A stretch of 40,861 nt of DNA from a virus (taxonomy: Duplodnaviria; Heunggongvirae; Uroviricota; Caudoviricetes), in IMG/VR virus record IMGVR_UViG_2541047778_000015; one strand, written 5' to 3'. Position numbers and translations under genes: made by a program. Under the pieces are notes generated by a model, which did not search any database, was not told where the DNA came from, and saw only the letters and a program-made list of their open reading frames with translations. This document shows, one piece after another, positions 3,369 to 39,602 of the stretch. Within the stretch, counting starts at the first letter, position 1, and every line of letters begins with the position of its first letter.

Positions 3369-3395
3369 CCCGCAAAATATTGCGGGCTTTTTTTT
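3369..3395 (+). terminator. Plus-strand intrinsic terminator (hairpin plus T8) overlapping the tailspike stop codon
   Basis: CCCGCAA-aata-TTGCGGG followed by TTTTTTTT on the plus strand; the minus-strand reading lacks a U-tract, so it does not terminate the tailspike transcript. Confidence 0.6.
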
Positions 3396-6300
3396 AACGT
3401 TCTTCCAGAGACTGAATCCGCTCTTTTATCTTATCCATTTCTCTGCGCTGCCATGCTGCCTCGATATAGAATAAGAGATCAGGTCTGACCCCCCATCTAG
3501 ATCCTGCTGGCGTTATTTCAACGCGCTCAATGATGTCTTCCATTACCATCACTGGATTATCATCCTCATCAACAATGATGCTCCCGTCATTATCAGTCAG
3601 CGGAATTTCCCTTTGGCCAGTAATGACGTCATCATATACTGCGGGATAATCGTCATAGCAAAGAAAGGCATAGCGGCATGTTGTGCTTTCTTCTTCCATG
3701 AGTCCGTGAGAAATAAGAACATCACGAAGTTGCTGCGCGATTACACCATGATGTATCCTCGCCCCTTCTTCCCCCTTTATAGCGACAGCGTTCAGCCATT
3801 TATAAGCGATATACCTGACGTCACCCCAGGCATCCAGCAATGCTTCGTCAGGAGAGACCGGCTCTGTCTTTAATGTTCCGTCACTGGTAACCACAGGATT
3901 GGAGCCAAGATAAACTGTCGAGAACCTGTTTCCCGGACCACCAAGAGCATTTACATTATCAAGATAAGGTTTAACATCTCCGTTCTCAAAAAGATGTTCG
4001 AGTGCGTTATATACCGCGCGACGTGGAGTACTGCTTCTGGAACCATGCAACGTTATCATTGCACCATCTGCTGAAGACGTTGTTTCACCGCCGCTAACGA
4101 TTAATCTCTGAGCGGTAACATCATCAGACGGTACTTTCTTCGCAATAATGGCGTAATTACCCTCAAGTTTGACTTCCGCGCGAACTTGTCCTGATGTACC
4201 TGCATGGACAGTCAGTGACTGGACGGCAACATCATCTGTGAAATCAACGGGTACAGGAACCGTCCTCACGCCTGACGTCGACATAAAAGTAGGAAGCGTT
4301 CTGTTAGGAGTGGCTCCGTAGACAAAATCCCTTGAAACAAATTCTTCCTGTTTAATTTTCACCCTGAAACAATACAAATCAGCCGGGTGACCATCGTGAA
4401 CATAAGGATATTTTCTGTTGTTATCCCCTATGCTCCATGGGTTTAGAAAGTCTTCCCCACCGAAAATGTAGTACAGCCAGTTGTCTTTGATACAAACTGA
4501 ACCAACACCAACCGCAGAGTTAACTATTCCGCCCTGATAAATCTGATCAGTAACATTAACCCACTCTACATTATCCAGACTCCACTCATTGACGTTAACT
4601 CTGGTCATAAATGTTCTTGGATAATTTCCTGCATAACGGTTATCAGGTTCTCCTCCTTCCCACTCACCAAATGCGCGCTCACTGCCAAAAATAATCAGCT
4701 CATCGCCAACTTTGGCAAAAGGAAGGTTTGAGTGATGAACATTATTTGGGAAGCGAAGAGAATTCCATGATGTACCTAAATCAGAGCTTCTGTGCAATGA
4801 ACTACCGGGTTGAGTACTTAATGTCCCCCTGGTCGTCAGATACAGAATGCCATCATAATATTTTACACATGGCTCAGATGCATTCGCCTCATATTCTGCA
4901 GGTATGCGTCTGCGAACAAAGCTACCAGGAGAACCGAAAGCATCAGAGAAATAGAGTATCCCAAGCTCGCGTGGACCAATATCACCATTATGGTAGCCAA
5001 CAGCAAAACTGTTATCGCTAATCGTCGCAAAACTGTGAATCTCAGTAACAGGAGTGCTTCCGTCAACAAAAGAAGGAATAGTTCCAAGACTGGTTTTTCT
5101 CCATGGTGACGAGTGAAATGATGTACCAAAACTCCAGTATCTACCCTCGTTATTCTGATCCACATCCTGGGTATTTTGCGTCGTAACTGTAAAAGTATTT
5201 TTATCAATAACAGTAGTCACCGTCATATTCCCGGTAACACCTGTAACACCAGAGTTTGAGAAGTTGACAAAATCACCAGCAAATAATCCGTGATCAGTAA
5301 TGCGAATATAAGCGACTTGCTGATTTGCTGCTTTCGTTATACCACCATAAACGCGAAGGCTGCGACTCATTGGGCGATCCCACAACTCTGCAACCTGCAG
5401 TTTATTTCCGCTCACGGTCCGCGTCTCAATTACAGCAAAAAGGCGATTTCTGACAACCCCCATACTCATGCAGTGATAGTTAACTGTGGGATAGTTTTCA
5501 TGTAAATCTGTAAGCCATTCCGGCGTTGTCCAGGTCTTCCCGTCATCTCCTGAGCGAACCCATGCAACATGGAGGTTATTTACACCATGGCGGTCTCCAG
5601 CCATAAAAGGCGCATAGATGACATTGTCATATACAAACGTTTTATCCTGCGTCCAGGCGTTGTACCACGGTGTATCTGTAATTTTAAATAACTCTCCCTG
5701 GATAAAATCTTCAGAAGCATAAAAAAGAGGCTGACCCGGTATTCTCTCAAATAAAAAACGAGCATTTTTAAATCGGCTGACATCCGGAAGAGTTGATACT
5801 TTAAAAGTAAGCCCTAATCCGTCAATTTTATAACCTGGAGATGAGGCTTCAAGGCACGCGCTTATTGCAGTGGAATCGTCATTTATACCATCACCAACAG
5901 CTCCAAAATCTTTGGGGCTAATAGCATCACGCATTTTATCCTGGAACGTTCGGTACACAGCCCCAGAACCATACTGAATAAACCAACCAAAACCACCAAC
6001 AACCCCGGCGATTGCAGCATCGACATAATTACGCATTGAGCGATTATTTACAGCGTCCTGTTCAAGTGATGGATCTGCAAGGTTAGAAATTTTGTTTTGC
6101 TTTGCATCGTAATATTTTGCAAGCAAAGATGGTTTCATCAATGCACGTCTGAACCACCCAAAACATTGCTGGATCAGCATCGTCAGGTAGTCAAAAGCAT
6201 CTTCATGCACTTCGGGGAAAAATTTTCCCTGATTGCGAAGGTCTGTCTCCTGCACTACATCAAGCACACGATCTATCGTAATTCGCCATCCAGCAGCAAG

Positions 6301-6513
6301 CGGCGACGGAAGAACAACAGAACCGCCACTATAAGTGCCCGCCCCAGTTACCGTATAACCGGTATCCAGTACTAGTTCTGTTACGTTACCGTTAAGGTCA
6401 GACACCTGAACAACCAGGTCGGATTTTTTGAAAATACGGAAGGTATACGGAAATGATGTCGTAACGCCGTTACCAGTGTATTCGTTGTGGTCAACTTCGG
6501 TTGAGACCGTCAT
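3394..6513 (-). CDS. Tailspike / tail fibre with predicted C-terminal intramolecular chaperone domain
   Basis: 1039 aa; N-terminus resembles the T7 gp17-type adaptor domain; two Asp-box-like motifs (SGDDGKTW, SSDLGTSW); C-terminal ~160 aa resemble the peptidase S74 chaperone domain, with S-x4-K at VVTSDGTLK. Confidence 0.8.
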   Translation of the reverse strand: MTVSTEVDHNEYTGNGVTTSFPYTFRIFKKSDLVVQVSDLNGNVTELVLDTGYTVTGAGTYSGGSVVLPSPLAAGWRITIDRVLDVVQETDLRNQGKFFPEVHEDAFDYLTMLIQQCFGWFRRALMKPSLLAKYYDAKQNKISNLADPSLEQDAVNNRSMRNYVDAAIAGVVGGFGWFIQYGSGAVYRTFQDKMRDAISPKDFGAVGDGINDDSTAISACLEASSPGYKIDGLGLTFKVSTLPDVSRFKNARFLFERIPGQPLFYASEDFIQGELFKITDTPWYNAWTQDKTFVYDNVIYAPFMAGDRHGVNNLHVAWVRSGDDGKTWTTPEWLTDLHENYPTVNYHCMSMGVVRNRLFAVIETRTVSGNKLQVAELWDRPMSRSLRVYGGITKAANQQVAYIRITDHGLFAGDFVNFSNSGVTGVTGNMTVTTVIDKNTFTVTTQNTQDVDQNNEGRYWSFGTSFHSSPWRKTSLGTIPSFVDGSTPVTEIHSFATISDNSFAVGYHNGDIGPRELGILYFSDAFGSPGSFVRRRIPAEYEANASEPCVKYYDGILYLTTRGTLSTQPGSSLHRSSDLGTSWNSLRFPNNVHHSNLPFAKVGDELIIFGSERAFGEWEGGEPDNRYAGNYPRTFMTRVNVNEWSLDNVEWVNVTDQIYQGGIVNSAVGVGSVCIKDNWLYYIFGGEDFLNPWSIGDNNRKYPYVHDGHPADLYCFRVKIKQEEFVSRDFVYGATPNRTLPTFMSTSGVRTVPVPVDFTDDVAVQSLTVHAGTSGQVRAEVKLEGNYAIIAKKVPSDDVTAQRLIVSGGETTSSADGAMITLHGSRSSTPRRAVYNALEHLFENGDVKPYLDNVNALGGPGNRFSTVYLGSNPVVTSDGTLKTEPVSPDEALLDAWGDVRYIAYKWLNAVAIKGEEGARIHHGVIAQQLRDVLISHGLMEEESTTCRYAFLCYDDYPAVYDDVITGQREIPLTDNDGSIIVDEDDNPVMVMEDIIERVEITPAGSRWGVRPDLLFYIEAAWQRREMDKIKERIQSLEER

Positions 6514-6616
6514 GTTAAATCTCCAGATAGTCGCAGCACCCGTTGCGCCGCATATCTGGTTATTCTATTACCTGAAAAACCACATATGGATAGAAAGACT
6601 GTGAATACGAATAGAT

Positions 6617-6633
6617 ATTACCTTTCGGGTAAT
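6617..6633. promoter_or_regulatory. Operator-like site ATTACC-tttcg-GGTAAT
   Basis: 17-bp palindrome of the recurring family; intergenic, between the tailspike start and the LexA box. Confidence 0.5.
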
Positions 6634-6669
6634 TTGCAAAACGTGCTGGATAGCAAACAAATTATTTGA

Positions 6670-6689
6670 TACTGTATAAATATACAGTT
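6670..6689. promoter_or_regulatory. LexA (SOS) box
   Basis: TACTGTATAAATATACAGTT: CTGT-N8-ACAG with an AT-rich spacer, close to the consensus TACTGTATATATATACAGTA; lies 20 bp upstream of the 6709 start and overlaps a TATAAAT -10-like hexamer. Confidence 0.7.
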
Positions 6690-6708
6690 ATTGCATGGAG
6701 AAGATAAG

Positions 6709-6966
6709 ATGCAGCAGTATCACTATCCACTGGAAGACGGATTTACCGAAAGGATTCACACGCCGGGAGGCGTCAGATCACTGGTGGAGGGATCGCACTT
6801 GATGAAATTACTCCGGGATCTCGATAAGGATGGATTTAATGTCGATGGCCCACTTGCCGAACTGACTGCACTGATTAACTACGTCACCAGCTCACAGATG
6901 TCTATGCAGGATCTGCAAACACATCTCGACTATTGTGCCGAACAATTACGAAAACAAACCACATAA
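6709..6966 (+). CDS. Small protein homologous to the shared antirepressor C-terminal module (candidate SOS-inducible antirepressor)
   Basis: ATG at 6709 with GGAG 8 nt upstream (ORF track used TTG at 6691); the 85-aa product aligns with the C-termini of the 8112 and 10849 genes. Confidence 0.55.
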   Translation: MQQYHYPLEDGFTERIHTPGGVRSLVEGSHLMKLLRDLDKDGFNVDGPLAELTALINYVTSSQMSMQDLQTHLDYCAEQLRKQTT

Positions 6967-6990
6967 AGAAAAGGCCGCTCTAGCGGCCTA
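6967..6990. terminator. Hairpin between convergent genes (bidirectional terminator candidate)
   Basis: GGCCGC-tcta-GCGGCC with an A-run upstream (U-run for the minus-strand transcript). Confidence 0.45.
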
Positions 6991-7716
6991 TCGTTTCGCT
7001 TTGTGCTCGTCCCAGCACGTTTTGCACCATGCCATTAAGCCGTCCGCATTTTGATTATTAGGGTAAAAGCTAGTTCGTTTTCTGCGGACATTACAAATTG
7101 GGCACCACTTCATATGGCGTGTATTCTTTGGGCCATCGAGACACCTTGCACACCACTTAGTCAATCCATCTGGATTTTTTGACGATTTCCTGAATTTTTC
7201 ATATGGAAGGTTTATTCTGCATCGCAAGCACTGCTTGCTACCACTTGAAACTCTGTTAGCTGATTCTTCTTTTGGCGGCGATACAGAAGGTATTCTTGCT
7301 GGCTCTGATACTGCCTGAGGTGCTTTTTTAGATGACTGAGACGATATGTCATCACCAGGGAATCTTCCATGATATGCCGGACGCGTTGACACTCCGGGTG
7401 GAAGCTCAGCTGTAAACGGCTTTGGCTGAATCAGTTGCCTCTCTTTTGCTAACTCCTGCTGTTTATAATATGTCTGGATTACCGCGCTATCATAAGCAGG
7501 AGGTACGGAAATATTAGGCGCATTATCTCCCGTTTTTTGAAACTGAGTGGAGGTGTGTTCTATCACCTGTGTACGATTAATCGTTATCTCCCCATCTTCA
7601 GTCTTTATCGTTTTGTTATGATTAACGACCGTACGATCAGAGATCTTAGTCTTGTTCTGGTTGATAACGTAAATAATCACCGCAACCACACCAACAACTA
7701 CCCAGAAAACTTCCAT
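6988..7716 (-). CDS. Membrane-anchored protein with tandem Cys-rich (zinc-ribbon-like) repeats, unknown function
   Basis: N-terminal TM helix (MEVFWVVVGVVAVIIYVI); C-terminal repeats SKNPDGLTKWCARC and NQNADGLMAWCKTC plus further CxxC pairs. Confidence 0.55.
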   Translation of the reverse strand: MEVFWVVVGVVAVIIYVINQNKTKISDRTVVNHNKTIKTEDGEITINRTQVIEHTSTQFQKTGDNAPNISVPPAYDSAVIQTYYKQQELAKERQLIQPKPFTAELPPGVSTRPAYHGRFPGDDISSQSSKKAPQAVSEPARIPSVSPPKEESANRVSSGSKQCLRCRINLPYEKFRKSSKNPDGLTKWCARCLDGPKNTRHMKWCPICNVRRKRTSFYPNNQNADGLMAWCKTCWDEHKAKR

Positions 7717-7735: not shown

Positions 7736-7752
7736 ATTACCTTAAAGGTAAT
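7736..7752. promoter_or_regulatory. Operator-like site ATTACC-ttaaa-GGTAAT
   Basis: Perfect 6-bp arms; 20 bp upstream of the start of the 6988..7716 gene. Confidence 0.5.
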
Positions 7753-7800: not shown

Positions 7801-7845
7801 TTGATTTTAATATTTCTTCGCGTTTATCATTACCTTTGCGGTAAA
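7801..7845 (+). promoter_or_regulatory. Sigma70-like promoter with overlapping operator-like site
   Basis: TTGATT, 18-bp spacer, TATCAT, with ATTACC-tttgc-GGTAAA (7829..7845) overlapping the -10/+1 region. Confidence 0.5.
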
Positions 7846-7960: not shown

Positions 7961-8111
7961 TGTAAAGCGCACCTATTCTATGGTGGGCTGTGTGGGGGCA
8001 CCGAAAGGTGCGCCGGGTTCCTTTGTAGCCGGTAAGACCAACTCTGCACAGTTCACCACCATCTGATTGGTCTCAGCGGTGGTGATTAACCTAACTACAA
8101 AGGTGATCGCC

Positions 8112-8804
8112 ATGAATACCAAACCTTCCATCTTTTCCTTTGAGTCATCCTGCCAGATCCGTATGTTCATGATTGACGGAGAACCTTGGTTTGTCACCAA
8201 AGATGTGTGCAATGCTTTGAATATTGATGTTACACAAGCGAGAAAACTTGATAAAAAAGGCTGGAACAAAAAGGGGCTGTATTCAATACAGACCCCTGGT
8301 GGAATACAAGAACTATCCATCGTTTCAGAATCAGGTCTCTACATCCTTATTCTGCGTTGCAAAGAGGCAATGACTGAGGGAACGAGAGCATTCAGATTTC
8401 TTGAATGGGTTACAGGTGAGGTTCTTCCTCAGATCCGCCGCACCGGAAGTTACATTAAAAACTCGCTCCCGCAGGAAGAACGCATAAAGATGGTTGCCGA
8501 CCAGGTAGCCAACGCCACAGCATCAGCAGTGATGCAGGCAATGAAGATAGAGAACAAAACCTACAGTGCCCCACTGAAGCCCGGCTACCGCAGCCTGATT
8601 CATTCTCCGTCTGGTGTTCTCGGCCTGACGGAGAACTCATTGCTTATGAATCTGCTAAACCAGTTACAGGAAGACGGGCACGACGTATCGGGCGCGGCGG
8701 CGGAGCTGACCACCATGTTCTGCTACATCGTCGGTGTGAGCAAATGCCTGCGTGATATCCAGACCCACGCGGAGTACATCAACGACAAGGCAGGGTTCTT
8801 CTGA
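8112..8804 (+). CDS. Antirepressor with Bro-N/KilA-N-type N-domain and shared C-terminal module
   Basis: Start at MNTKPSIFSF (ATG 8112); the N-terminal segment IRMFMIDGEPWFVTKDVCNALNI is Bro-N-like; the last 77 aa are identical to the C-terminus of the 9911..10849 product. Confidence 0.7.
   Translation: MNTKPSIFSFESSCQIRMFMIDGEPWFVTKDVCNALNIDVTQARKLDKKGWNKKGLYSIQTPGGIQELSIVSESGLYILILRCKEAMTEGTRAFRFLEWVTGEVLPQIRRTGSYIKNSLPQEERIKMVADQVANATASAVMQAMKIENKTYSAPLKPGYRSLIHSPSGVLGLTENSLLMNLLNQLQEDGHDVSGAAAELTTMFCYIVGVSKCLRDIQTHAEYINDKAGFF
8571..8804 (+). repeat. Inverted-repeat copy A (codes the shared 77-aa C-terminal module)
   Basis: Reverse complement matches 9911..10144 with about a dozen single-base differences by hand alignment, all synonymous. 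Confidence 0.8.
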
Positions 8805-8841
8805 CGGGCGGTGGCACAGGGATGTGCCTTTAAAATAATCA

Positions 8842-8886
8842 TTGGCGATGTGATGTAGATTCGCGTAATATTACCTTACGGGTAAG
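8842..8886 (+). promoter_or_regulatory. Promoter-like hexamers with operator-like site ATTACC-ttacg-GGTAAG
   Basis: TTGGCG, ~17-18 bp spacer, TAATAT, then the 17-bp palindrome at 8870..8886; upstream of the 8945 gene. Confidence 0.45.
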
Positions 8887-8944: not shown

Positions 8945-9577
8945 ATGAAAACAAATACAACAAGAAAAGCGATGCCATACATTATCCCAGAAGCAGATTT
9001 CGACAGAAAACTGAACATGTCTGAGAAGAACACTAGTCACACCGAAAGCTACTTAGCGAAAGGTGTGGTTGATTTCGTTCTTCCGGGATTCACAACACCT
9101 TATGGTTATCGCCTTGTAAAATCTTGTAATGGCGATCATTACAGAATGATTACTACCAGCGATACTCCAGAAACGGTGTATGCGGTTAAGTTAATCTTTC
9201 GGGAAGATATCGTCGAAGCTAAAAGAACATGTACGCAGATCATGGTATGGCGTACGCCTAATGTTATTCATGACCGTGCTGTTCATGGTTTGCCTCAGAT
9301 TTTTTTTCAGTTCTTTCTAGAGCAATATGCGATCGTTGTATCTGATGAGCAACAAACAATCGATGGGAGAAGATTCTGGGAAAGAATGATTTCTTGGGCT
9401 ATAAACACCCCGGGATATAATGTATACGTTTCAGATGGCTCTGAAGAAGATAGACCTCTTAGCTTCATGACATCATGGGATGATTTCTATAGCCAGTGGG
9501 CTGATTTCTGTTGGGGCAGTGATAAAGATGTGCATACCCACAGACTACTGGTTATAAGCAAAGATAAACTGCATTAA
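8945..9577 (+). CDS. Hypothetical protein, accessory cargo
   Basis: 210-aa ORF with its own promoter-like region and downstream terminator; no family recognised. Confidence 0.55.
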   Translation: MKTNTTRKAMPYIIPEADFDRKLNMSEKNTSHTESYLAKGVVDFVLPGFTTPYGYRLVKSCNGDHYRMITTSDTPETVYAVKLIFREDIVEAKRTCTQIMVWRTPNVIHDRAVHGLPQIFFQFFLEQYAIVVSDEQQTIDGRRFWERMISWAINTPGYNVYVSDGSEEDRPLSFMTSWDDFYSQWADFCWGSDKDVHTHRLLVISKDKLH

Positions 9578-9603: not shown

Positions 9604-9675
9604 GTGGACGAAACAAAAGTCAGTGCTACACTCATTGACGCCACATTGAGGTGGCTTATAGATGGAAATTTCACA

Positions 9676-9837
9676 ATGAAAAAAGCATTTGCTGCACTGT
9701 TCGTTTTGTTGTCTCTGGTAGCTTCAACTCAGGCCTTTGCCGGTCGTTGTCAGCACGACAGCGATACTGCCGCTGACGGCTCCCGCTGCGGTGGGCGTTC
9801 TGCGGATTCCCGCCCGGGCGGCGGTGGCATTCGTTAA
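9676..9837 (+). CDS. Small secreted Gly/Cys-containing peptide (candidate)
   Basis: MKKAFAALFVLLSLVASTQAFA signal peptide, then a ~31-aa Gly/Asp/Arg-rich body with two Cys; start is the ATG at 9676 inside the longer ORF-track frame. Confidence 0.4.
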   Translation: MKKAFAALFVLLSLVASTQAFAGRCQHDSDTAADGSRCGGRSADSRPGGGGIR

Positions 9838-9860: not shown

Positions 9861-9910
9861 GTGACATGTCACGCTAGTTTCGTTTTGCACGTCCCTGTGC
9901 CGCCGTTCTG

Positions 9911-10144
9911 TCAGAAGAACCCTGCCTTGTCGTTGATGTATTCCGCGTGCGTCTGGATATCACGCAGGCATTTGCTCACACCAACGATGTAGCAGAACAT
10001 GGTGGTCAGCTCCGCCGCCGCGCCCGATACATCGTGCCCGTCTTCCTGTAACTGGTTCAGCAGATTCATCAGCAGTGAGTTCTCCGTCAGGCCGAGAACA
10101 CCCGACGGCGAATGAATCAGACTGCGGTAGCCTGGCTTCAATGG
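9911..10144 (-). repeat. Inverted-repeat copy B (codes the shared 77-aa C-terminal module)
   Basis: See copy A at 8571..8804. Confidence 0.8.
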
Positions 10145-10849
10145 ATAACCATAACATTTTGTCTGTGTTTTAATTGCCTCACGAAGCGCATCTAACATCT
10201 TGACTGCCACTTCATCATTCTCTGATGCAGATCCAGCAGGGAGATACTCCCCTTCAAGCGGAACCCGAGCAACAAGAGACAACGCTTCGGCAAATTGATC
10301 TTCACCAATTTCTTTGTACGAACAGCCAAAATGAGATTTCAGTGACGACCACATGGTGATCATCGCCTTAGCCTGTTTTTCTTTTGGCAGAGACTGACCG
10401 CGACTCATGACGAGTTGTTTAATGGCTTCCTGCTGTTCAGTTGTTATTTTACCCGGCAACGCCTTTTTAGCTTTGCGTGGGTTAACCACATGGCCTTTAG
10501 TCCAGTACTCGTAGAGCACATCGTCACACTCTTCCTGATACTGGATTACCTTGTCGCGGATTTCAGGGCGGACTTTGTTAGGGCTGATGCTGTTCAACCA
10601 AGCTGCCAATTTTCGTAAAGCCATACAAATCATGGCTTGCACCCCACCGGCAGAAGGTATGGTGATTTCCACCATACCCTTCGAGAAGCGTTGAGAAATC
10701 TTCTTATGTTGAGATTTCCAGTCTAGCCCCATTCCCTCAACGATAGGTTTCATTGGGGTATACGGTTCGCCGTTGTGATTGACAACATAAAGCTCTGCGC
10801 CGTGGAATGGCACGTTGATAGTAGATACTGCTGTTGCTATACTCGTCAT
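9911..10849 (-). CDS. Antirepressor with P22 Ant-type N-domain and shared C-terminal module
   Basis: N-terminus YVVNHNGEPYTPMKPIVEGMGLDWKSQHKKI resembles the P22-type antirepressor N-domain; last 77 aa identical to the 8112..8804 product; sits downstream of an Arc-like gene as in P22 immI. Confidence 0.7.
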   Translation of the reverse strand: MTSIATAVSTINVPFHGAELYVVNHNGEPYTPMKPIVEGMGLDWKSQHKKISQRFSKGMVEITIPSAGGVQAMICMALRKLAAWLNSISPNKVRPEIRDKVIQYQEECDDVLYEYWTKGHVVNPRKAKKALPGKITTEQQEAIKQLVMSRGQSLPKEKQAKAMITMWSSLKSHFGCSYKEIGEDQFAEALSLVARVPLEGEYLPAGSASENDEVAVKMLDALREAIKTQTKCYGYPLKPGYRSLIHSPSGVLGLTENSLLMNLLNQLQEDGHDVSGAAAELTTMFCYIVGVSKCLRDIQTHAEYINDKAGFF

Positions 10850-10921: not shown

Positions 10922-11089
10922 TTATGCCACGCTATTCTTCTCACCAGTGAGTCCATACACTTTCCTCAGCTGATAGATAATCTCTGTATTGAACTTTCGG
11001 CATTCTTTTTCGCCATTTCTTTCAATAGCTAACTTCACATCGTCCGGAAAACGAACTCGTCGTTGACACATCTCTTTTGCTTTTTGCAT
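10922..11089 (-). CDS. Arc-like ribbon-helix-helix repressor
   Basis: Start at MQKAKEM with AGGAG 7 nt upstream (ORF track used GTG at 11110); RVRFPDDVKLAIERNGEKECRKFNTEIIYQL parallels the P22 Arc RHH region. Confidence 0.6.
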   Translation of the reverse strand: MQKAKEMCQRRVRFPDDVKLAIERNGEKECRKFNTEIIYQLRKVYGLTGEKNSVA

Positions 11090-11103
11090 TTCATATCTCC
11101 TTA

Positions 11104-11118
11104 GCCCCACCGTGGGGC
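11104..11118. promoter_or_regulatory. Mnt-operator-like near-palindrome (GCCCCACCGTGGGGC) in the arc/ant promoter region
   Basis: Perfect outer arms GCCCCA/TGGGGC; lies between the divergent mnt-like and arc-like genes; related CACACCGTG and CACACGGTG elements at 11130..11163. Confidence 0.45.
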
Positions 11119-11209
11119 AAAATAATTGTCACACCGTGCGTCATTGATGTCAAGCACACGGTGAGGCATACTTCAATCATTGCAAGTAACTCAATATTTG
11201 GTGAAGAAC

Positions 11210-11641
11210 ATGAGCAGAGAAGATCCACAACTAAGGATCAGACTTCCCGTCGAAGTAAAAGAAAAAATAGAAATTTCTGCAAAAGCCAATAAGCGATCAA
11301 TGAACGCTGAAATAGTACAACGTCTTGACACCAGCTTTCTGAAAGATATTCATGAAGATGACGTAATTTCTGCTTATGAAGCAAAAATCATTGCAAACAA
11401 TGCACGACATGAAATATCAAATATTATTTTCAAAAGAACCTTTAATGAAATTAATAAGAAAATAACACTTGGACATACAAGTTTTTATATAAACCTTAAT
11501 GACCTTGAACTGGAATCACTTGCAGATAATGATTACCAGATCATCTTTGAAAAAACATTTAATAGGCTCAATGAACTAGGTTACATCATCTGTGAAAACT
11601 CATGGGATGCAGATGGTTTTGGAATTGAAATACCTGAATAG
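11210..11641 (+). CDS. Mnt-like ribbon-helix-helix repressor with C-terminal extension
   Basis: MSREDPQLRIRLPVEVKEKIEISAKANKRSMNAEIVQRL parallels the P22 Mnt N-terminus as recalled; 143 aa, longer than the Mnt I recall. Confidence 0.65.
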   Translation: MSREDPQLRIRLPVEVKEKIEISAKANKRSMNAEIVQRLDTSFLKDIHEDDVISAYEAKIIANNARHEISNIIFKRTFNEINKKITLGHTSFYINLNDLELESLADNDYQIIFEKTFNRLNELGYIICENSWDADGFGIEIPE

Positions 11642-27017: not shown

Positions 27018-27034
27018 ATTACCTTTTAGGTAAG
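27018..27034. promoter_or_regulatory. Operator-like site ATTACC-tttta-GGTAAG
   Basis: TTGACA hexamer at 26997..27002 immediately upstream. Confidence 0.45.
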
Positions 27035-29573: not shown

Positions 29574-30166
29574 TGATTACCATCCTGACGTTCTTTGAGT
29601 CGCTTCCTGGCTGCTGCTATGCGATCAGCAATTGTCACATTCACATTAACATCCAGACGTTCTTTGAACGCGTTGACATCAACATGCTTACCAATCAGCT
29701 CAAGGTTCTTCACCTTGTCAGGCCATTTAATTTTTTTGAGGATTGTCTCTATCGAATCCTCGTTCATGTTCATGATGGTCGACGACAGATCAAAGCCACT
29801 AAGCGTAGTGCGCCAGATTTTCGGCCACTCACGGATTGGTTTAAGGCTCCCATCGTCGTTGAGGATGTCGATCACGTCCATCTGGTCGATCTCCACCAGG
29901 CGCATGAGAACGTAATCAGCACTGACGCGCATTCGTTTGTTGCGCTCCTCCATCAACTCGGCAATCCGTTTCTGAATGCGTTCATCGCGCATCATGACAC
30001 TGGCTTTAACTGCCGCTGTGTTTGGGGAGAATCCTGCGTTAATCGCTGCCTGAGTCTGGTTTTCAGGCGTTTTGATGTATGACTGGCAATAAGCCTCCTG
30101 CATTGCTGTGAGCGGCTTAAATTGCGTTGATTTGCGTTTATAGGTTTTAGGTTCAGCAGGCATCAT
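29570..30166 (-). CDS. Terminase small subunit
   Basis: Start taken at MMPAEPK; the ORF-track N-terminal extension is the translation of the upstream operator-like repeat; 4-bp overlap with the large subunit gene. Confidence 0.6.
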   Translation of the reverse strand: MMPAEPKTYKRKSTQFKPLTAMQEAYCQSYIKTPENQTQAAINAGFSPNTAAVKASVMMRDERIQKRIAELMEERNKRMRVSADYVLMRLVEIDQMDVIDILNDDGSLKPIREWPKIWRTTLSGFDLSSTIMNMNEDSIETILKKIKWPDKVKNLELIGKHVDVNAFKERLDVNVNVTIADRIAAARKRLKERQDGNQ

Positions 30167-30182
30167 AACCACCGTGGTAATA

Positions 30183-30199
30183 GTTACCGTTGTGGTAAT
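30183..30199. promoter_or_regulatory. Operator-like site GTTACC-gttgt-GGTAAT
   Basis: Preceded by an extra GGTAAT half-site at 30176..30181; directly upstream of the terminase genes. Confidence 0.45.
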
Positions 30200-32287: not shown

Positions 32288-32304
32288 TTTACCTCTAAGG
32301 TAAT
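32288..32304. promoter_or_regulatory. Operator-like site TTTACC-tctaa-GGTAAT
   Basis: One mismatch in the left arm; overlaps the RBS region of the 32285 gene. Confidence 0.4.
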
Positions 32305-32349
32305 TAAAAACCATATAAGACACGAAATCAATAGAGTTTAGAATATTTT

Positions 32350-32366
32350 GTTACCTTGTAGGTAAT
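32350..32366. promoter_or_regulatory. Operator-like site GTTACC-ttgta-GGTAAT
   Basis: Intergenic, between the replication genes and the nin-like block. Confidence 0.45.
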
Positions 32367-34251: not shown

Positions 34252-34268
34252 ATTACCTTTGAGGTACG
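34252..34268. promoter_or_regulatory. Operator-like site ATTACC-tttga-GGTACG (degenerate right arm)
   Basis: Between the cro-like gene and the replication genes. Confidence 0.35.
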
Positions 34269-34322: not shown

Positions 34323-34553
34323 TCATGAGTAGAAGAAGTATGCCAGTTCTGCTTTTGAGCGCAGCCATTGTCTTGTTTTACAGGCTTTAAAAAGCCCATT
34401 CATCAATACCTTACCTGGCATTTTGCGCTTACCTGTTAAGTGAGTCTGGATATAGTGACTCGTCGTTCCGGCTTCCTGTGCGAAGGCTTCACGCTCATCC
34501 GGAGTAAGTGCAAGCCAGTGCTTTTTGAAATCGAAATGTCCGTTATCGCTCAT
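34323..34553 (-). CDS. Cro-like HTH regulator
   Basis: 76 aa; AGTTSHYIQTHLTGKR resembles the Cro-type HTH; divergent from the repressor gene. Confidence 0.6.
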   Translation of the reverse strand: MSDNGHFDFKKHWLALTPDEREAFAQEAGTTSHYIQTHLTGKRKMPGKVLMNGLFKACKTRQWLRSKAELAYFFYS

Positions 34554-34588: not shown

Positions 34589-34653
34589 TTCACCCATAAG
34601 GTAACAAAAATCAAGGATAGTTACCTATGGGGTGCATTTACCTGTTGGGTAAT
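34589..34653. promoter_or_regulatory. Immunity-region operator cluster (three adjacent operator-like sites) between cro and the repressor gene
   Basis: TTCACC-cataa-GGTAAC (34589..34605), TTACC-tatgg-GGTGC (34620..34636), TTTACC-tgttg-GGTAAT (34637..34653); resembles an OR1-OR3 layout. Confidence 0.5.
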
Positions 34654-34707: not shown

Positions 34708-35292
34708 ATGAAAAGTATCCAGGACGTCCGCAGGCAAAATCTCAACGACTTGATCGACCGTGAATTCAATGGTGTTCAGACGCGGATGGCAGAAAAACTT
34801 GGAACTCAGGCAAATCTGGTAAACCGCTGGGCTCTTGGCAAGAAGGTTATCGGCGACCAGGTTGCGCGAAAAATTGAAGCTGCCGCCAATAAACCCCGTA
34901 ACTGGCTTGATATCGATCGCTCGCTTTCTCAGGAAGGTTTTCAGCCTGTCGGCCCAAGCGACATTGGTCAGCTGGCGGCTCACAACCTGGAACGCTGGAT
35001 GAGCGAAAGCCGCGACCTTTCAACACAGGGAAAACTTCACCGCGCATCCGGCGTCGCCCAGGTGACAATCAGCCGCCTGTTAAACAATGAGGTCAGCGTT
35101 TCCATTTCCACCCTGGAGAATGTTGCATCCGCATTCGGGCGTCACGGCTATGAATTACTGATTCACCCGCACGACCCTGCGACTATCAACTATGACCGCT
35201 CGCGCTACGCATTGTTACCCGAAACCGAGAAAGCAAAGATCGAAAGTTACATTGAATTTGTCATCAACCAGAACGAAAAAAACAAACAATAA
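34708..35292 (+). CDS. Prophage repressor with two HTH-like regions and no S24 autocleavage domain
   Basis: 194 aa; HTH-like segments near residues 24-46 and 110-145; no Ala-Gly / Ser-Lys peptidase region seen; divergent from cro. Confidence 0.65.
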   Translation: MKSIQDVRRQNLNDLIDREFNGVQTRMAEKLGTQANLVNRWALGKKVIGDQVARKIEAAANKPRNWLDIDRSLSQEGFQPVGPSDIGQLAAHNLERWMSESRDLSTQGKLHRASGVAQVTISRLLNNEVSVSISTLENVASAFGRHGYELLIHPHDPATINYDRSRYALLPETEKAKIESYIEFVINQNEKNKQ

Positions 35293-35348: not shown

Positions 35349-35427
35349 ATTACCTTGTGGGTAATTTTTTTAACTCATATCTATTGACATCAAACCAGAT
35401 ACGCATAATCATTACCTCAACGGTAAC
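35349..35427 (+). promoter_or_regulatory. Early-left promoter (PL-like) flanked by two operator-like sites
   Basis: ATTACC-ttgtg-GGTAAT (35349..35365); TTGACA (35384..35389), 17-bp spacer, AATCAT; ATTACC-tcaac-GGTAAC (35411..35427) overlapping -10/+1. Confidence 0.5.
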
Positions 35428-38003: not shown

Positions 38004-38303
38004 GTGAGAAAGTTAAGCCGACTTGAAAAATATCACATGAATAAGGTTTCAATGCGTAGTCCGTCAAAGATTGTCGCCGTTACTCCTGCGGCGATAGAGA
38101 TCGAAAAACGCGCGATTGAAAGAGAAAAAAAAGGGCAGTTCCGCATTGCCGCTCACCTTTGGCTTCAGTGTATGGATGTTGCTTCTGGTGATGTTGAGCG
38201 AGCAAGGATTGCGGTTCGCAGGGACCAATGTATCACAAAAGGTAACGGCCTTCGCCGTGGCGACTATAGCGGCATAGGATGTTGTGGGGTGGTTTATGAC
38301 TAA
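38004..38303 (+). CDS. Hypothetical protein, translationally coupled to the methyltransferase
   Basis: GTG start; stop overlaps the methyltransferase ATG (ATGA). Confidence 0.4.
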   Translation: MRKLSRLEKYHMNKVSMRSPSKIVAVTPAAIEIEKRAIEREKKGQFRIAAHLWLQCMDVASGDVERARIAVRRDQCITKGNGLRRGDYSGIGCCGVVYD

Positions 38304-38946
38304 GAAATACACACTAATCTATGCAGATCCACCCTGGGTATACCGGGACAAAGCCGCAGATGGTAATCGCGGTGCCGGTTTTAAATATCCGGTTATGAGT
38401 GTGCTTGATATCTGCCGCCTTCCTGTGTGGGATTTGGCCGATGAAAACTGTCTGTTGGCCATGTGGTGGGTGCCAACACAACCACTCGAAGCACTAAAAG
38501 TTGTTGAAGCCTGGGGATTCCGTCTGATGACCATGAAGGGCTTCACGTGGATAAAATGTGGTAGTCGACAACAAGATAAACTGGTTATGGGTATGGGTCA
38601 CATGACTCGCGCCAATAGTGAAGATTGCCTGTTTGCAGTAAAGGGAAAACTACCTCCGCGCATTAATGCAGGGATCGTTCAGTCATTTACCGCACCGCGG
38701 CTTGAGCATTCAAGAAAACCAGATGTCGTTCGTGAAAAACTTGTGCAATTGTTAGGCGATGTTTCTCGCATTGAACTGTTCGCCCGCCAGTCGTCTCATG
38801 GCTTCGATGTTTGGGGTAATCAGTGCGAAGACCCGGCAGTGCAACTACACCCTGGATACGCGTTGGCTATTGGCGGATTAACAAATGCATTCAGCAATGC
38901 TCCGCTGTCACCAACAGACAACCAGGGGCGGGAGCGTTCAGCATGA
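38296..38946 (+). CDS. MT-A70-family N6-adenine DNA methyltransferase
   Basis: Catalytic DPPW motif (IYADPPWVY) near the N-terminus; start taken at the ATG at 38296. Confidence 0.7.
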
Positions 38947-39602
38947 ACCTATATCAACGCATCAATGGCGCTGACTGGTGCAATATCTTCGTCGTCGGCG
39001 ATCTGCATGGGTGCTACACGCTGCTGATGAACGAACTCGACAAAGTTTCATTCGACCCGGCGCGCGATTTGCTTATTTCCGTTGGTGACCTTGTTGACCG
39101 CGGCGCTGAAAACGTCGAATGCCTGGATTTGATTACTATGCCGTGGTTCCGAGCTGTTCGTGGCAACCATGAGCAGATGATGCTGGATGCACTGGTCAAC
39201 GGCGGAAGTTTCGGACATTGGATGTCAAACGGCGGTGGATGGTGGCGCCAACTTGATTCTGAGCAGGATGTGCAACTCAAATACCTTCTGCCAAAGGTTA
39301 CCAACCTCCCGATGATTATCGAACTGGTTACCGGCAATAAGAAGGTCGTCATCTGCCACGCAGACTACCCCCACAACGAATACGCATTCGATAAGCCAGT
39401 ACCGGAAGAAATGGTGATATGGAATCGTGAGCGGGTTAGCGACGCGCAGGACGGTATTGTCTCGGAGATAACCGGTGCCGATTTGTTCATCTTCGGTCAT
39501 ACGCCAGCACATCACCCACTAGTGTATGCAAACCAGATGTACATCGACACCGGCGCAGTGTTCTGCGGAAATCTGACGCTTACCAAAGTCCAGGAAGGAT
39601 AG
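38943..39602 (+). CDS. Ser/Thr protein phosphatase (lambda-phosphatase-like metallophosphoesterase)
   Basis: GDLHG, GDLVDRG and GNHE motifs in order; start MNLYQRING at 38943, overlapping the methyltransferase stop by 4 bp. Confidence 0.8.

Follow-up and report, generated by a model that had tools for sequence, protein, structure and literature searches.

Among described systems, the locus studied here is closest to the switch that governs induction in Salmonella phage SPC32H. The repressor of this phage, Rep, reportedly stays uncleaved upon SOS induction and is inactivated by a small antirepressor, Ant, whose gene is said to be repressed by LexA (findings attributed to Kim & Ryu 2013, J Virol 87:11775). 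A structural follow-up on the SPC32H Ant/Rep pair, with the PDB entries 5D50 and 5D4Z, was published by Kim et al. (2016, PNAS 113:E2480).

The secondary literature describes induction of the SPC32H type as running through a LexA-controlled Ant. According to it, an Ant tetramer engages two Rep dimers and thereby dismantles the Rep tetramer that binds DNA; Rep itself is described as not cleaved. Accounts of Gifsy-1 and Gifsy-3 (antirepressors GfoA and GfhA) and of phage 186 (Tum) describe a non-cleavable repressor and a small LexA-controlled antirepressor encoded outside the immunity region; in these accounts, the Gifsy antirepressors can act on heteroimmune repressors. Closer in sequence to our phage is vB_EcoP_ZX5 (ZX5), whose titer rose from 1e7 to 1e9 PFU/mL with mitomycin C (PMC9782041). 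Overexpression of its ORF4, which has a Bro-N domain, lowered lysogeny: the prophage titer fell about 1000-fold and rep mRNA by 75%. That study named ORF4 the anti-repressor and mentioned neither LexA nor the small gene that concerns us here (PMC9782041).

Here, we analyze a window, i.e., the whole 40,861-nt stretch of viral DNA under study, which is an epsilon15/phiV10-like (Uetakevirus) prophage of E. coli. We propose, with a probability of about 0.88, that it carries the induction switch of this prophage, orthologous to the Ant/Rep/LexA system of SPC32H. Such a switch is already known in kind, and ours would be the E. coli copy of it.

Results

Phage identity and the small ant gene

The ant region of the window is 96-99% identical to those of phiV10, TL-2011b, ZX5, and others. 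Phages SPC32H, epsilon15, phiV10, and TL-2011b share one gene order: the tailspike gene (minus strand), ant (plus strand), and the operon of internal proteins. The window follows it. Its ant gene is found away from the immunity region, with the tailspike gene on one side and the operon for internal/injection proteins on the other; about 5 kb of accessory genes are inserted after ant. The tailspike (3394-6513, minus strand) is a K1-capsule endosialidase (End_beta_propel, E = 1e-233, plus a Peptidase_S74 chaperone domain). It is 99% identical to that of ZX5 and has a catalytic part in common with CUS-3, which illustrates how podovirus lineages exchange their tailspikes. Beside the integrase, the window encodes a PerC-like transcriptional activator (38004-38303), an MT-A70 adenine methylase (38284-38946), and a calcineurin-like phosphoesterase (38823-39602).

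The assignment of ant follows from several matches of its 85-aa product. The protein aligns over residues 2-85 with chain E of PDB 5D50, labeled "Anti-repressor protein" (E = 1.3e-47), and is 87-88% identical to SPC32H Ant. Chains A and E of this structure are from SPC32H, whose GenBank record names its genes ant and rep. Among the PHROGs, the protein belongs to phrog_450 (E = 1e-47), with further matches to phrog_15539 and, weakly, to phrog_1760. A Pfam search of it gave no significant match, and a sub-threshold one to DUF724 alone. It is a small homologue of SPC32H Ant, of the size typical of that type (about 86 aa). The P22_AR_N and Bro-N domains that characterize the N termini of other antirepressors are not found in it; they are present in two larger paralogues, which we describe below. 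The coordinates of all features are given in Table 1.

Table 1. Features of the proposed switch and of related regulatory loci in the window
Feature	Position	Strand	Basis or remark
Putative Rep operator, ATTACC-N5-GGTAAT	6617..6633		36 nt upstream of the LexA box, tailspike/ant divergent intergenic region
Candidate ant promoter	6647..6675	+	-35-like TGGATA (6647-6652), 17-nt spacer, -10-like TACTGT (6670-6675)
LexA (SOS) box, putative	6670..6689		TACTGTATAAATATACAGTT; matrix score and positional conservation
Shine-Dalgarno GGAG	6697..6700	+	8 nt before the ATG at 6709
ant, 85-aa small antirepressor, SPC32H Ant orthologue	6709..6966	+	PDB 5D50_E, phrog_450, synteny
GC-rich hairpin	6972..6989		AGGCCGCTCTAGCGGCCT; rho-independent terminator at the equivalent place in the epsilon15 record
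Bro-N antirepressor with C-terminal Ant-type module	8112..8804	+	Pfam, phrog_450
P22_AR_N antirepressor with C-terminal Ant-type module	9911..10849	-	Pfam, phrog_450
Arc-like 62-aa ORF	10922..11110	-	Upstream of the P22_AR_N antirepressor gene; Arc-like
Arc/Mnt-like 153-aa ORF, divergent	11180..11641	+	Arc domain
Cro-like small regulator, divergent from rep	34323..34553	-	phrog_35 transcriptional repressor, E = 6e-13
rep/cro intergenic operators, putative	34589..34653		One good copy (34637-34653), two degenerate
rep, 194-aa prophage repressor	34708..35292	+	Pfam HTH; homology to 5D50_A
Two operator-like palindromes	35349..35427		Downstream of rep, ahead of the exo/recT operon

A single LexA-box-quality site precedes ant

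We scored LexA-type sites with a symmetric position weight matrix made of 26 known E. coli LexA boxes of the SOS regulon. The site upstream of ant reaches 27.4 bits, against 13.3-26.8 for the training sites. The second-best LexA-type site in the window scores 10.5 bits, below every training box. In 100 shuffles of the window scanned with the same matrix, the best site averaged 11.8 bits and at most reached 20.2. Hence, TACTGTATAAATATACAGTT is the sole site of LexA-box quality in the whole window. The bare motif CTGT-N8-ACAG is present in three copies (0.54 expected), and only this one has an AT-rich spacer and TA/TT flanks; the two others have GC-rich spacers. The initial annotation had recognized a match to the LexA consensus here and placed it directly upstream of the start of the small gene. 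Both points are borne out, since just 19 nt separate the end of the box from the ATG of ant. The tailspike ATG lies 157 nt away, on the other side of a divergent intergenic region of 195 bp.

Around the box, no gaps are needed to align the window with the corresponding upstream DNA of SPC32H, SPC32N, and epsilon15, and the window box falls exactly on the TACTGTATGTTTATACAGTG of SPC32H. Over the 166 aligned nucleotides, SPC32N differs from SPC32H at a single position, a C-to-A change that turns the right half-site from ACAG into AAAG. A single-base change in the LexA site reportedly causes the constitutive expression of Ant in SPC32N, as Kim & Ryu are said to have found in 2013.

Where is the promoter of ant? 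Consensus scans for a sigma-70 promoter returned weak matches and no strong one, so that our assignment is an inference from conservation. The element CTGGA(T/A)A and the distance that separates it from the box are kept from E. coli to the relatives in Klebsiella, and the -10-like hexamer that goes with it sits within the LexA box. The earlier claim that the box overlaps the -10 region is plausible, by way of this conserved candidate. Taken with the candidate promoter, the box is placed as in SPC32H-type systems, within or next to the promoter of ant and immediately 5' of the gene. The Shine-Dalgarno block TTGCATGGAGAAGA is conserved in SPC32H and epsilon15. The hairpin after ant is probably a bidirectional terminator that closes both the ant unit and the convergent gene at 6988-7716 (minus strand). 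The latter, which has the hairpin in common with ant and is missing at this position in SPC32H and epsilon15, encodes a protein of 242 aa that has a hydrophobic segment near its N terminus and zinc-finger-like CxxC repeats toward its C terminus; it belongs to phrog_6762, with weak matches to the endonuclease VII and Lar-like families.

The box keeps its position across genera

We compared 93 related loci: 80 viral contigs, eight species-level genomes (from Citrobacter, Erwinia, Superficieibacter, Pseudocitrobacter, Scandinavium, Kluyvera, and Klebsiella), and phage records. The 80 viral-contig loci are 99-100% identical, which is too close for a test of conservation, and the eight genome loci and the phage records were added for this reason. 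Within the 200 nt upstream of ant, the best LexA-type site lies 19-22 nt before the start codon in about 88 of the 93 loci. Those with the conserved position come from E. coli, Salmonella, Citrobacter, Erwinia, Scandinavium, Kluyvera, and Klebsiella. They include about 11 variants of the box, in which the CTGT and ACAG half-sites are kept and the spacer varies (ATAAATAT, ATAAACAT, ATATTTAT, ATGTTTAT, ACATTTAT, ACATAAAT, GTATTTAT). The left half-site is ATGT in the most distant loci, those of Kluyvera, Klebsiella, and Superficieibacter. The Kluyvera and Klebsiella boxes score 17.6 bits, inside the range of real boxes, and that of Superficieibacter 12.3 bits, just under it.

The exceptions to the conserved position are the SPC32N mutant and three contig loci. 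One of these (L026) is cut by the end of its contig. In another (L074, positions 1-54), the contig ends in a Nextera transposase adapter, AGATGTGTATAAGAGACAG, which stands in place of the left half of the box. In the third (L032, about 1380-1480), unrelated sequence precedes the right half-site, suggesting that the locus was rearranged or that an assembly junction lies here.

Rep is a diverged homologue of SPC32H Rep and lacks an S24 domain

Rep aligns over residues 1-190 of its 194 with chain A of PDB 5D50, labeled "Repressor" (E = 4e-42). By Pfam, residues 106-147 form an HTH_3 domain, and residues 21-61 match an HTH more weakly. The predicted layout is that of the SPC32H type: an N-terminal HTH domain for DNA binding, followed by a C-terminal HTH_3-like domain for oligomerization and Ant binding. 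Pfam found no Peptidase_S24 in Rep, and no S24 peptidase was found in 25 other proteins from the immunity, early, and accessory regions. The initial description of a 194-aa repressor with two HTH regions and no S24 domain was therefore accurate, both by Pfam and by the alignment with 5D50_A.

The sequence of Rep is identical to that of the phiV10 and ZX5 repressors and only 42% identical to that of SPC32H Rep (53% in the N-terminal domain, 39% in the C-terminal one). The putative recognition helix, QNLVNRW, is kept in both Rep types. Ant shows a different pattern of divergence, with 84.5-88% identity between the window and the SPC32H/epsilon15 group, against 42% for Rep. In Enterobacter phage Tyrion, the values relative to the window are 86% for Ant and 78% for Rep. 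This pattern suggests a tolerance of Ant for diverged Reps, similar to that of the Gifsy antirepressors. In the phage collection, Ant was found in 35 records and this Rep family in 36, plus one partial match in Pseudomonas. The records come from the same four host genera, and each one listed for Ant is also listed for Rep.

Operator-like palindromes are spread over the phage

The palindrome ATTACC-N5-GGTAAT occurs at 14 sites of the window with up to two mismatches, where 1.2 would be expected. These sites lie at 6617-6633, 7736-7752, 7829-7845, 8870-8886, 27018-27034, 30165-30199, 32288-32366, 34252-34268, 34637-34653, and 35349-35427. They are intergenic and stand ahead of operons throughout the phage, including the late-gene regions. 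Equivalent sites are labeled as "repressor" binding in the GenBank record of epsilon15, which has three of them at the place corresponding to the pair downstream of rep. We think that these palindromes are probably the operators of Rep. If so, Rep would directly gate many promoters. Some of the sites lie around rep itself, and the Cro-like gene on the far side of the rep/cro intergenic region heads the replication operon. The copy closest to the LexA box may provide a Rep-dependent feedback on ant, or else gate the divergent tailspike/lysis operon.

Two larger antirepressors carry the Ant module

The family phrog_450 also matches the C termini of two larger proteins, encoded at 8067-8804 and 9911-10849 (minus strand), with E values of 1e-35 to 1e-37. 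The first of these ORFs was listed with a TTG start at 8067, and its likely start is the ATG at 8112. The modules of both proteins are 37-39% identical to the 85-aa protein, which confirms the earlier view that the small protein is the free-standing version of a module also fused to two larger antirepressors. The matrix scan of the window found no LexA box for either of the large genes, and no Pfam families other than those of Table 1, the C-terminal domain of the P22 protein included, were reported for their products at E <= 0.01.

The 3' ends of these two genes form an inverted repeat of 270 bp (8536-8805 and 9910-10179) that is 90% identical. The 77 codons shared by the modules encode the same protein, with 12 synonymous and no non-synonymous differences. 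Because all 12 nucleotide changes are synonymous, both copies appear to be under purifying selection. We considered whether the repeat could delimit an invertible segment and rejected this idea, since it consists of two genes with a common conserved module that differ by synonymous changes only. The 1.1-kb segment between its arms contains the genes 8945-9577 and 9604-9837.

The two large genes have different surroundings. The regulators next to the P22_AR_N gene match Pfam Arc (E = 1e-14) and the Arc-like families phrog_228 and phrog_3178. Their layout resembles the arc-ant/mnt arrangement of P22, and they could be immI-like control genes of this antirepressor. The Bro-N protein corresponds to ORF4 of ZX5 and is identical to it from a shared block near residue 118 to the end. 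In phiV10, the Bro-N "anti-immunity" gene (6766-7445 of locus L004) is cut inside the Ant-type module and encodes 194 aa, whereas its counterparts in ZX5 and TL-2011b have 231 aa. Judging from this truncation, the large antirepressor of phiV10 is probably inactive; its small ant is intact.

Discussion

These results are best explained by a switch of the following kind. In the lysogen, a non-cleavable Rep would silence the lytic promoters, most likely as a tetramer that occupies the ATTACC-N5-GGTAAT palindromes. A dimer of the host LexA would occupy the box, overlapping the promoter of a transcription unit with ant as its single gene. Upon DNA damage, RecA would become active, LexA would cleave itself, and ant would be transcribed. 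Ant, which is a tetramer in SPC32H, would then bind the C-terminal domains of two Rep dimers. The DNA-binding Rep tetramer would be broken up, freeing the operators and turning on the lytic genes. The box with its strength and conservation, the orthology of Ant and Rep, and the absence of S24 were computed here, and we take LexA control, the uncleaved Rep, and the Ant-Rep complex from the SPC32H literature. That the same steps operate with the diverged Rep of this phage is inferred: Ant-Rep binding is an extrapolation, because of the low identity between the two repressors, notably in the Ant-binding C-terminal domain. The prediction of the initial annotation, SOS induction through a LexA-controlled small antirepressor and not through repressor cleavage, is supported: every predicted element is present and has an orthologue in the SPC32H switch, which has been characterized both by experiment and by structure. 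The reported response of ZX5 to mitomycin C lends indirect support, since this phage has the same Rep as the window and an Ant that matches in 84 of 85 residues.

Could the working antirepressor be the Bro-N fusion, with the small gene being redundant or having some other target? The effects of ORF4 overexpression in ZX5 speak for it, as the module of ORF4 is identical to that of the window protein, and so does the 39% identity of the C-terminal domain of Rep to its SPC32H counterpart. We nevertheless find this unlikely. The Bro-N gene has no LexA box and is truncated in phiV10, where the small ant is intact. The small gene and its box are kept in all relatives, including SPC32H and epsilon15, which lack the large antirepressor. 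Moreover, the ZX5 study never tested the small gene (PMC9782041), and roles for the two proteins are not mutually exclusive. The box could also control mainly the divergent tailspike/lysis operon (3394-6513 and downstream, minus strand) rather than ant, given that it is palindromic, lies between divergent genes, and is not accompanied by a strong ant promoter in the consensus scans. This is very improbable in view of the distances, 157 nt to the tailspike ATG against 19 nt to that of ant, and of the spacing of 19-22 nt to ant across genera. The sole leftward promoter-like match, a -10 TAGAAT at 6562-6567, is about 100 nt from the box. The box mutation of SPC32N is also reportedly linked to the expression of Ant (Kim & Ryu, 2013).

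Two further explanations have next to nothing in their favor. AT-rich intergenic phage DNA may produce palindromes by chance, and CTGT-N8-ACAG is present at two other places of the window. Yet, the box outscores every box used to train the matrix and all 100 shuffles, and its half-sites are kept over some 90 loci while the spacer varies, so that we regard a functionless palindrome as extremely improbable. We give just as little credit to the inactivation of Rep by RecA-stimulated self-cleavage in the style of lambda CI, for which no support was found: Rep has no S24 domain, and its full length is covered by the two domains of SPC32H Rep, a protein described as uncleaved in the secondary literature. 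An orthologue of the SPC32H switch thus remains our preferred reading of the locus.

The multiplicity of Ant modules may have additional consequences. One possible, if rather speculative, view is that the Ant fold is a portable Rep-binding module that this phage has deployed three times under three controls, integrating several signals for induction or anti-immunity. The 85-aa protein may be controlled by LexA, the P22_AR_N fusion by the Arc/Mnt-like immI genes, and the Bro-N fusion by the Rep-type palindromes upstream of it. The small Ant, or a paralogous module, could even act across Uetakeviruses with diverged Reps, which we suggest because Ant is about 86-88% identical where the Reps share 42%. 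If true, this could allow cross-induction in the manner of Gifsy phages, or an escape from superinfection immunity. An Ant that evolves independently of Rep, and whose module is used again in larger antirepressors, would extend the SPC32H model in a modest and testable way.

Since the mechanism is established, the main value of our analysis lies in annotation. An ant orthologue is present in 529 of 5,426 complete E. coli genomes, about 1 in 10, and in the records listed it is called a "hypothetical protein"; a copy also lies at 2089-2346 of MW722083.1. Recognizing a small LexA-controlled ant predicts how these prophages respond to SOS-inducing antibiotics, and K1 endosialidase tailspikes or genes for O-antigen modification are present in some of them. 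The small ant would be the gene whose removal makes them non-inducible.

How does the locus compare with known systems? The nearest one is that of SPC32H. Both phages belong to the genus Uetakevirus, and they share an Ant of 87-88% identity, a two-domain Rep without S24, the site of ant between the tailspike gene and the injection-protein operon, the position of the LexA box, and an upstream ATTACC-N5-GGTAAT palindrome. They differ in Rep, where the window has the sequence type of phiV10 and ZX5 (42% identical to SPC32H Rep), in the spacer of the box (ATAAATAT in the window, ATGTTTAT in SPC32H), and in the host, Salmonella there and E. coli here. The window also has the extra 5 kb or so after ant, with the two large antirepressors that are missing there in SPC32H. 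The phages ZX5, phiV10, and TL-2011b are closer still (98.5-100% identity for Rep, 97.6-100% for Ant). The endosialidase tailspike is shared with vB_EcoP_ZX5 and the accessory region with TL-2011b. In their records, however, the small gene is a "hypothetical protein."

The initial annotation had invoked precedents among Salmonella and E. coli prophages. The antirepressor logic was right, and the functional design of Gifsy GfoA/GfhA and 186 Tum, direct LexA control combined with a non-cleavable repressor, is indeed shared by the switch proposed here. The direct precedent is, however, SPC32H, from the same genus, and not the Gifsy/186 systems in general. The latter belong to lambdoid siphoviruses and P2-like myoviruses, unlike our phage, and the Pfam and PHROGs profile searches of the 85-aa protein revealed no sequence relationship to Tum, GfoA, or GfhA. 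SPC32H Ant is said by Kim & Ryu to be structurally distinct from the Gifsy and Tum antirepressors. Finally, the immI region of P22 has its counterpart in the gene at 9911-10849 (minus strand), which encodes a P22_AR_N domain and has adjoining Arc-like regulators. The small Ant differs from P22 Ant in having neither P22_AR_N nor Bro-N and in its predicted control by LexA instead of Arc/Mnt, and the C-terminal module of the large proteins differs from P22 Ant in being of the SPC32H-Ant type.
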